DNA of 64,000 nucleotides from Octopus vulgaris (Eukaryota): positions 8,432,001 to 8,496,000 of the forward strand of contig OX597829.1 of assembly GCA_951406725.2 (NCBI GenBank), read 5' to 3'. This document shows, one piece after another, positions 29,898-30,469 of the stretch. The translations under genes were made by a program, and so were the position numbers. Below the pieces are notes generated by a model. The model was not told the origin of the DNA and searched no databases. It saw nothing but the letters and a program-made list of their open reading frames with translations. The first letter of the stretch is position 1; each line of letters opens with the position of its first letter.

Positions 29898-30469
29898 ATG
29901 CCCTGATGCAGTAACATGCCATGATGCAGTACCAGGCAGTGGCTCTCATGGCTTCTGATCTTAACTGATTGAAAGTGTCATCCTGTACATTTCTTTGTCT
30001 TCGTATAAAAGATGGGCTACAGCAAATATTCTGCTCAAACCACAGATTTGTTTGTCAGTTGTTTGACCTTAACCAGTTGAGCATGTCCCTTAGTGGCTGA
30101 CGATATGTGCATCTCTGATCACGAGCTGAAGTAGTGGGGGAGCATCATGGCCGTTTGCTGAGAGGGATTCTTTGAGGTTTGAATAATTCTCCCTGGAAAC
30201 ATGGGTGGTTCGTTCAACATCCTTAAACAACCCTTATTCAGGGACCTTTTGAGCGGGATAGGCTACTCAACCCGAAGAAAATTCTAACTGGGCCCCACCT
30301 GCAAGGTCATGTGCTGTTTATCTTGATATGAGATCACCATGTGGCGCACATATGGTTGTGATGCATGTGCCTGGTGTACCCTTATCAGACGGTTAGTCAT
30401 GATGGGTATATTGGGCTTCGTATATTTTACTCCAGTGTCACTTTGATGGCATGAACTGCTCTCTCACTC
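29898..30469 (+). mobile_element. ~550-bp (TAA)n-targeted element, copy 3 (full length, 5' ~17-nt duplication)
   Basis: (AAT)n on both sides; starts atgccctgatgcagta, ends ctctctcactc. Confidence 0.9.

Follow-up and report, generated by a model that had tools for sequence, protein, structure and literature searches.

We describe a 556-nt non-coding repeat of the Octopus vulgaris genome that is probably a non-autonomous retroposon relying on the protein of Dong/R4-clade LINEs for its copying. The most likely helper for its young copies is Dong family A. The repeat was studied in a 64,000-nt stretch of contig OX597829.1 (the window), where a profile built from 39 full-length copies finds nine pieces of a unit with fixed 5′ and 3′ ends. 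These pieces correspond to eight insertions, the number given by an earlier sequence-only reading, although that reading had overlooked the piece at 39204-39494 and counted as a copy at 36997 what is only a 5′ fragment. Its unit of ~550 bp starting at 29898 has nearly the right size, but the true start is at 29916, and bases 29898-29915 are a recopy of the 5′ end. The insertions, their flanks and the neighbouring LINEs are as follows.

1352..1835 (-): 5′-truncated copy, element bases 73-556 (profile search)
7336..7785 (+): copy of element bases 104-553, its 5′ side replaced by another SINE (profile search)
29578..29897 (+): (AAT)n target array on the 5′ side
29898..29915 (+): element bases 1-16 recopied in tandem, with two extra bases (5′-end reiteration)
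29916..30469 (+): full-length retroposon copy, 95.8% to the family consensus
30470..30783 (+): (AAT)n target array on the 3′ side
30784..33697 (+): 5′-truncated Dong/R4 LINE of family A, the candidate helper family (RVT_1, E 6e-31)
36447..36978 (+): full-length copy with a 24-nt internal deletion (profile search)
36996..37092 (+): 5′ piece of a split copy, element bases 2-99 (profile search)
37093..39203 (+): broken LINE, presumably RTE-type, inserted in the split copy (RT-like motifs in translation)
39204..39494 (+): second piece of the split copy, element bases 81-373, 3′ part lost (profile search)
45009..45384 (-): 5′-truncated copy, element bases 184-555, directly behind a Dong A 3′ end (profile search)
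50522..51073 (-): full-length copy where (GAA)n meets (AAT)n (profile search)
58114..58659 (+): full-length copy inside (AAT)n (profile search)

In all seven copies whose 3′ end is intact, the element finishes at CTCTC(ACTC) and is followed by AAT in the polarity of the Dong element at 30784-33697, as had been read from the sequence. That Dong element has the same polarity and 3′ phase as the adjoining retroposon copy. The 5′ truncation attributed to several copies is indeed seen in several, but in the copy at 7336 another SINE interrupts the element, so that this is no clean truncation. At its 5′ junction, the copy at 1352-1835 carries an extra piece of the element (about bases 390-409) at 1835-1854, and inspection of the window flanks showed no upstream AAT at the copies at 36447 and 51073. 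The earlier statements that no ORF is kept and that TIRs are lacking both hold: the longest stop-free stretch is 59 aa, there is no coding remnant, and the ends as read from the sequence are not inverted repeats. Searching with a diverged copy retrieved only decayed copies and no distinct old family. The LINE that splits one copy is 2.1 kb long with a target duplication of about 12 bp; its motifs suggest an RTE, and the three frames scanned gave no Pfam match. Elsewhere in the window, an open frame at 14915-15520 (+) contains a piece of a fibroblast growth factor domain (PF00167, E 5.5e-14) and is probably an exon of a host gene.

Abundance was estimated from 88 stretches of 10 kb at chosen round coordinates (880 kb). 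The 18 profile hits are read as 15 insertions and one MITE (see below), two pairs of hits being rearranged single copies. Scaling to a genome of 2.8 Gb in about 30 large contigs gives an estimate of about 48,000 copies (Poisson range, 27,000-79,000). The element accounts for 0.7% of the sampled bases, 14 of the 15 insertions retain the 3′ end, and the youngest copies are 99.5% identical to the consensus.

Enrichment of the flanks for oriented (TAA)n had been set beforehand as the test on which the retroposon reading could fail; it is present genome-wide. Exact 3′ ends are followed by AATAATAAT, three AAT units in the Dong polarity, in 10,187 of 12,656 cases, the AAT background being 1.1% of positions by a looser test on the 880 kb of sampled genome. 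Twelve A/T bases lie directly upstream of 4,014 of the 6,143 exact 5′ starts, and those listed are nearly all AAT phases. The 35% of exact 5′ starts that lack 12 A/T bases upstream count against our main explanation, recopied units (see below) accounting for part of them. We also inspected 40 3′ ends picked for the absence of an exact 5′ start at the expected distance, 32 of which belong to 5′-truncated copies. Oriented AAT is found upstream of 32 of the 40 copies and of 25 of the 32 truncated ones; the eight exceptions comprise two fusions to pieces of Dong ORFs, two degenerate repeats, an unexplained case, and single instances of a recopied end, a 5′ inversion and an internal deletion. A mixed set of 95 other hits, which includes second halves of rearranged copies and MITE hits, had upstream AAT in 13 of 37 pieces without a 5′ end. 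AAT on both sides of truncated copies favours a site-specific endonuclease over a tail made from the RNA. A single copy, L264, sits in (GAA)n with no AAT after it, and locus L280 is a 5′-inverted copy. The flanks of L101, L105 and L112 contain a second very abundant short repeat, located between AAT tracts in the Dong polarity, which may use the same machinery.

The first 16-68 nt of the element are often repeated in tandem ahead of the copy, up to 68 times. There are 1,217 adjacent tandem junctions genome-wide (units of up to 38 nt); by our own count, the 86 tandem-junction rows on contig C1 represent about 31 loci. Outside the query-biased set, recopying is seen in five of 45 full-length copies. 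Arrays consist of 68 units at L253, 29 at L249 and at least 13 units of 68 nt at L254. The junction bases differ within a single array, the units of L253 shrink along the path of cDNA synthesis, from 29 nt down to 20-22 nt, the truncated copy L274 repeats its own truncated 5′ end, and two of ten Dong A copies with a 5′ end show the same recopying (L105 and L108; first 18-26 nt). Together, these features favour synthesis by a reverse transcriptase over DNA slippage alone, although later expansion at the DNA level may have lengthened the long arrays. Recopying of the 5′ end is an enzyme footprint that the element has in common with a Dong copy and, along with the oriented (TAA)n, it gives good support to the proposal that the element is a non-autonomous partner of a restriction-like-endonuclease (Dong) LINE. 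Given that each recopied unit sets in again at base 1, preceded by no more than a few A/T bases, the template RNA likely starts there rather than within the AAT tract. For R2, both template jumps and short tandem repeats at the 5′ junctions have been published (PMC3774820, PMC3414825), and our limited literature search found no paper on 5′ arrays of the length seen here.

Dong elements are known to target TAA repeats (PMC3774820). In the octopus, intact ORFs as long as 1227 aa occur in Dong A, its copies are 97-98% identical, and its 3′ ends join AAT in the same phase as the element. Identities within the sampled DNA are 82-100% for Dong A (eight copies, the youngest family), 75-93% for families B, C and D, and 74-97% for the element (13 copies); the values of 100% for families E and F are self-hits. 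We compared the element with 113 Dong-type 3′ ends in 22 clusters, each cut at the first run of AAT (or another trinucleotide) behind the ORF, and found no resemblance beyond chance, in agreement with the earlier claim of no similarity to Dong 3′UTRs. One strong match was to a cluster contaminated by the element itself, and an 18-nt match to another 3′ end has a p value of 0.007, but is one of 22 tests. There was also no match to the 5′ ends of Dong A and B (two full 5′UTRs) or to the 5′ region of a third Dong family in the window, so the sampled Dong ends contain no autonomous LINE UTR resembling the element. R2-type proteins are described as stringent for their own 3′UTR (PMC3414825), which makes recognition without homology a point against a Dong helper. 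A stem motif that the element seemed to share with four Dong 3′UTRs was rejected, as its presence in 28% of shuffles makes it no evidence for a helper link. The Dong 3′UTRs of families A, B, C and H have a common stem with a CTYGG-type closing motif 30-45 nt before the 3′ end and inner hairpins that differ, a candidate site for protein recognition.

Two further kinds of Dong derivative were encountered. Three fusions of a Dong ORF to the element (L203, L275 and L310) each have a different junction and involve Dong pieces of different families; they could be deletions between neighbours. The window contains an internally deleted Dong-type element at about 51171-52016 (-), in which the 5′ region and ORF start are joined to a short ORF end and the 3′UTR, followed by (GAA)n. 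Related pieces are located at 47225-47787 and 9982-10371. This deletion element may represent a genuine Dong SIDE, or else a deletion that happened once. A published octopus annotation reports 51 Dong-R4 families, more than we sampled, of which five were recently active; the portion of the main text and the supplement examined describe no Dong passenger (PMC13282606). The passages considered in PMC9115989 and PMC8967140 mention only Dong-R4 and abundant SINEs.

How the RNA might be produced was approached through searches for promoters and ribozymes. The claim that the element has no tRNA, 5S or 7SL head is upheld by the lack of an Rfam match and by a sense strand with neither an A box (one mismatch allowed) nor a B box. 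Rfam gave no matches in the window at the gathering score, and when four near-consensus copies were searched down to E 10, none of the 77 weak matches was credible inside the element; only 22-bit CrcZ matches touch it, and these span the AAT junction. An HDV-like ribozyme was found neither in the element nor in the Dong A 5′UTR, using Rfam and a descriptor of our own that had no positive control, and Rfam detected no ribozyme at the 5′ ends of Dong A or B. The older allele at position 33 of the element resembles the catalytic loop of R2 (PMC3414825), but P1, P1.1 and J4/2 do not fit by inspection, and the R2-like base is missing in all 37 copies of the young subfamily. Rfam finds no hammerhead, and the core motifs lack matching stems by inspection. 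No promoter signal was recognised in the element; a perfect TATA-box-like octamer at bases 89-96, in the 5′ domain, is too far downstream for a start at base 1 and is possibly due to chance. Linked alleles define successive and parallel subfamilies, suggesting several source loci, which in turn would favour signals inside the element.

The consensus is predicted to fold into three domains, with long-range helices pairing bases 219-230 with 544-555 and bases 231-244 with 435-448. Compared with 40 shuffles, the sense strand has z scores of -4.2 and -4.4 and the antisense strand of +0.9 and -0.4. Real copies score less well (-3.1 for one copy, -1.7 for the copy in the window), and no 100-nt window of the consensus falls below -2.9. 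One of the six helices proposed earlier, TACCC/GGGTA, is predicted with a probability of 0.99. The other five have probabilities of at most 0.03 or are absent from the young consensus, and the suggested closure of 5′ gcagtg with 3′ cactgc is among them. It is plausible that the element RNA is folded.

We propose the following mechanism. The RNA would extend from base 1 to base 556, its start most likely being set by signals internal to the element, at about even odds; an unrecognised 5′ cleavage or a few master loci with host promoters would share the other half. The Dong protein would bind the RNA by its shape, or loosely, without a copied UTR. Its restriction-like endonuclease would nick the ATT strand and the cDNA would begin exactly at the 3′ base of the RNA, in which case the downstream AAT would be target DNA and not an RNA tail. 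At the 5′ end of the template the enzyme would often add a few bases and jump back 16-68 nt, so that the 5′ stub could be recopied up to dozens of times before being joined to the upstream AAT. Taken to its full extent, this would mean that an RNA without a Pol III head, and with neither end in common with its helper, has exploited a site-specific and normally stringent Dong/R4 LINE at tens of thousands of sites and makes its own 5′ end via a signal not yet described (either a self-cleaving motif or an internal promoter of a new kind), while the reverse transcriptase acts like a telomerase on the 5′ stub and generates minisatellites of up to about 1.6 kb per insertion. We think it unlikely that all of this is true.

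A simpler relationship would be that the element is a SIDE/RIME-type internally deleted derivative, or a long 3′UTR, of a rare or extinct Dong family outside our sample, its ends then being normal LINE ends, which we regard as somewhat improbable. R2 SIDEs of ~530 bp can survive over tens of millions of years and are 20-36% divergent from their partner (PMC3414825), the genome has many Dong families (22 clusters sampled here; 51 consensus sequences in PMC13282606), and the window contains the internally deleted Dong-type element at about 51171-52016. However, a common ORF or other common non-element sequence lies upstream of none of the copies inspected, neither the 73 (28 + 45) whose 5′ end is complete nor the 40 picked by their 3′ ends. 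Moreover, the element has no coding remnant, and of 23 starts preceded by G/C, 22 are recopied element pieces or AAT junctions and one is a junction with another repeat. Mobilisation by a non-targeted LINE (RTE, CR1/L2) or by a Penelope-like element that makes AAT tails seems to us scarcely credible, even though the octopus annotation shows high abundance and recent activity for both RTE and Penelope elements (PMC13282606, Table 1) and RTEs that generate microsatellites have been reported (PMC2887409). AAT in the same orientation is present upstream of the element, also at truncated junctions, and the (GAA)n insertion has no AAT tail. There is also no hammerhead, and the ends are fixed, not permuted.

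The remaining alternatives concern the origin of the sequence. Descent from a structured host RNA (snRNA, 7SK or telomerase-RNA-like) whose fold is kept by selection, an origin close to that suggested by the sequence-only reading, would account for the difference between the sense and antisense z scores and for the long-range helices. Nothing beyond the z score speaks for it, however. Among 22 lineage-linked changes in 120 near-full copies, ten keep a pair, eight break one and four are unpaired, with 7.7 breaks expected by chance (P 0.67), and there were no compensatory pairs among the linked sites; an apparent tendency of subfamily changes to keep base pairs (eight of 12 paired sites) was dropped after this test. 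Two of nine control stretches of Dong, both coding, score -3.3 and -4.3, in the range of the element, whose copy in the window reaches only -1.7. Rfam gave no match down to E 10 inside four near-consensus copies, nor did a source RNA gene turn up. We consider such an origin, with its fold under selection, quite unlikely. Assembly of the element from other repeats, with its middle donated by a MITE, is very unlikely in our view. The idea arises from a ~500-bp TIR element (loci L152-L180 and L069:7669-8160) that has long subterminal inverted repeats, about 80% identity between copies and, abutting the right TIR, a 170-bp segment with 96% identity to bases 103-272 of the retroposon consensus. At positions 148 and 215 the segment has the alleles found in the oldest copies of the retroposon, which makes capture by the MITE the likelier direction. 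Its location next to the right TIR is that of captured filler, and the predicted fold pairs it with parts of the element outside it. No capture-free MITE was present in the sample.

Copying by a Dong/R4-clade protein is thus our preferred explanation. Passengers of restriction-like-endonuclease LINEs are rare, and the examples in the literature considered borrow the ends of their partner. A high-copy passenger without borrowed ends would be a natural test of what R2/R4-type proteins need in a template RNA, and template requirements are of interest for gene insertion tools based on R2. The young junctions, which number in the thousands, record the completion of cDNA and show how retrotransposition can lead to minisatellites. 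Should a library entry or a parental Dong family come to light, the element would be an ordinary, though abundant, SIDE-like repeat. Twitch is the name of an octopus SINE, and our literature search found nothing on it; nor did the search, which included four element words of 16-18 nt, return a paper describing the element. Repbase, Dfam, the supplement of Albertin 2015 or the library of PMC13282606 may already contain the consensus.

Compared with established classes, the element has neither the A/B-box head nor the partner-LINE 3′ tail of a Pol III SINE (22 Dong 3′-end clusters), and neither the hammerhead nor the permuted whole units of a retrozyme, only the 5′ stub being in tandem. The octopus SINEs OK, OR1 and OR2 and the Ceph-SINEs (PMC4758252) are likewise short, abundant cephalopod retroposons, but they have tRNA heads and conserved body domains. 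The element profile matched no other SINE in the 880 kb of genome. Dong of Bombyx mori also resides in TAA repeats with fixed polarity, but it is autonomous and its 5′ junction is made by self-cleavage of an HDV-like ribozyme, whereas the element is non-coding; its 5′ arrays reach dozens of units, while the repeats at R2 5′ junctions are short (PMC3774820).

Drosophila has R2 SIDEs and R2/R1 SIDEs. They too are non-autonomous, about 0.5 kb long and without a Pol III head, use the target site of a site-specific LINE and have their partner's kind of 5′ junction variation (PMC3414825). According to the same text, SIDEs carry a 5′ HDV-like ribozyme, for which our descriptor without a positive control and Rfam found no counterpart in the element, and have 3′ ends that are 81% identical to the partner 3′UTR or conserved with it segment by segment, a likeness not found here. 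SIDEs exist as few copies in rDNA (PMC3414825), the element as tens of thousands in microsatellites. A SIDE derives both ends from an autonomous element; among the Dong ends sampled, no such source was found. EhLINE1 of Entamoeba histolytica is an R4-clade element with a restriction-like endonuclease, and EhSINE1 has no tRNA head and has end sequence in common with EhLINE1. The octopus element, unlike EhSINE1, has no end in common with the sampled Dong families. EhSINE1 is a non-coding LINE passenger of about 550 bp, as the element probably is, but it is dispersed, with ordinary target duplications and about 445 copies (PMC3716655), and the element is targeted to microsatellites. With its fixed 3′ end, variable 5′ truncation and absence of LTRs, TIRs and coding sequence, the element has the features of a TPRT retroposon. 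The element is real: a non-autonomous retroposon, abundant and active in recent times, whose mode of working is that of a SIDE or of an EhSINE-type passenger of an R4-clade LINE.
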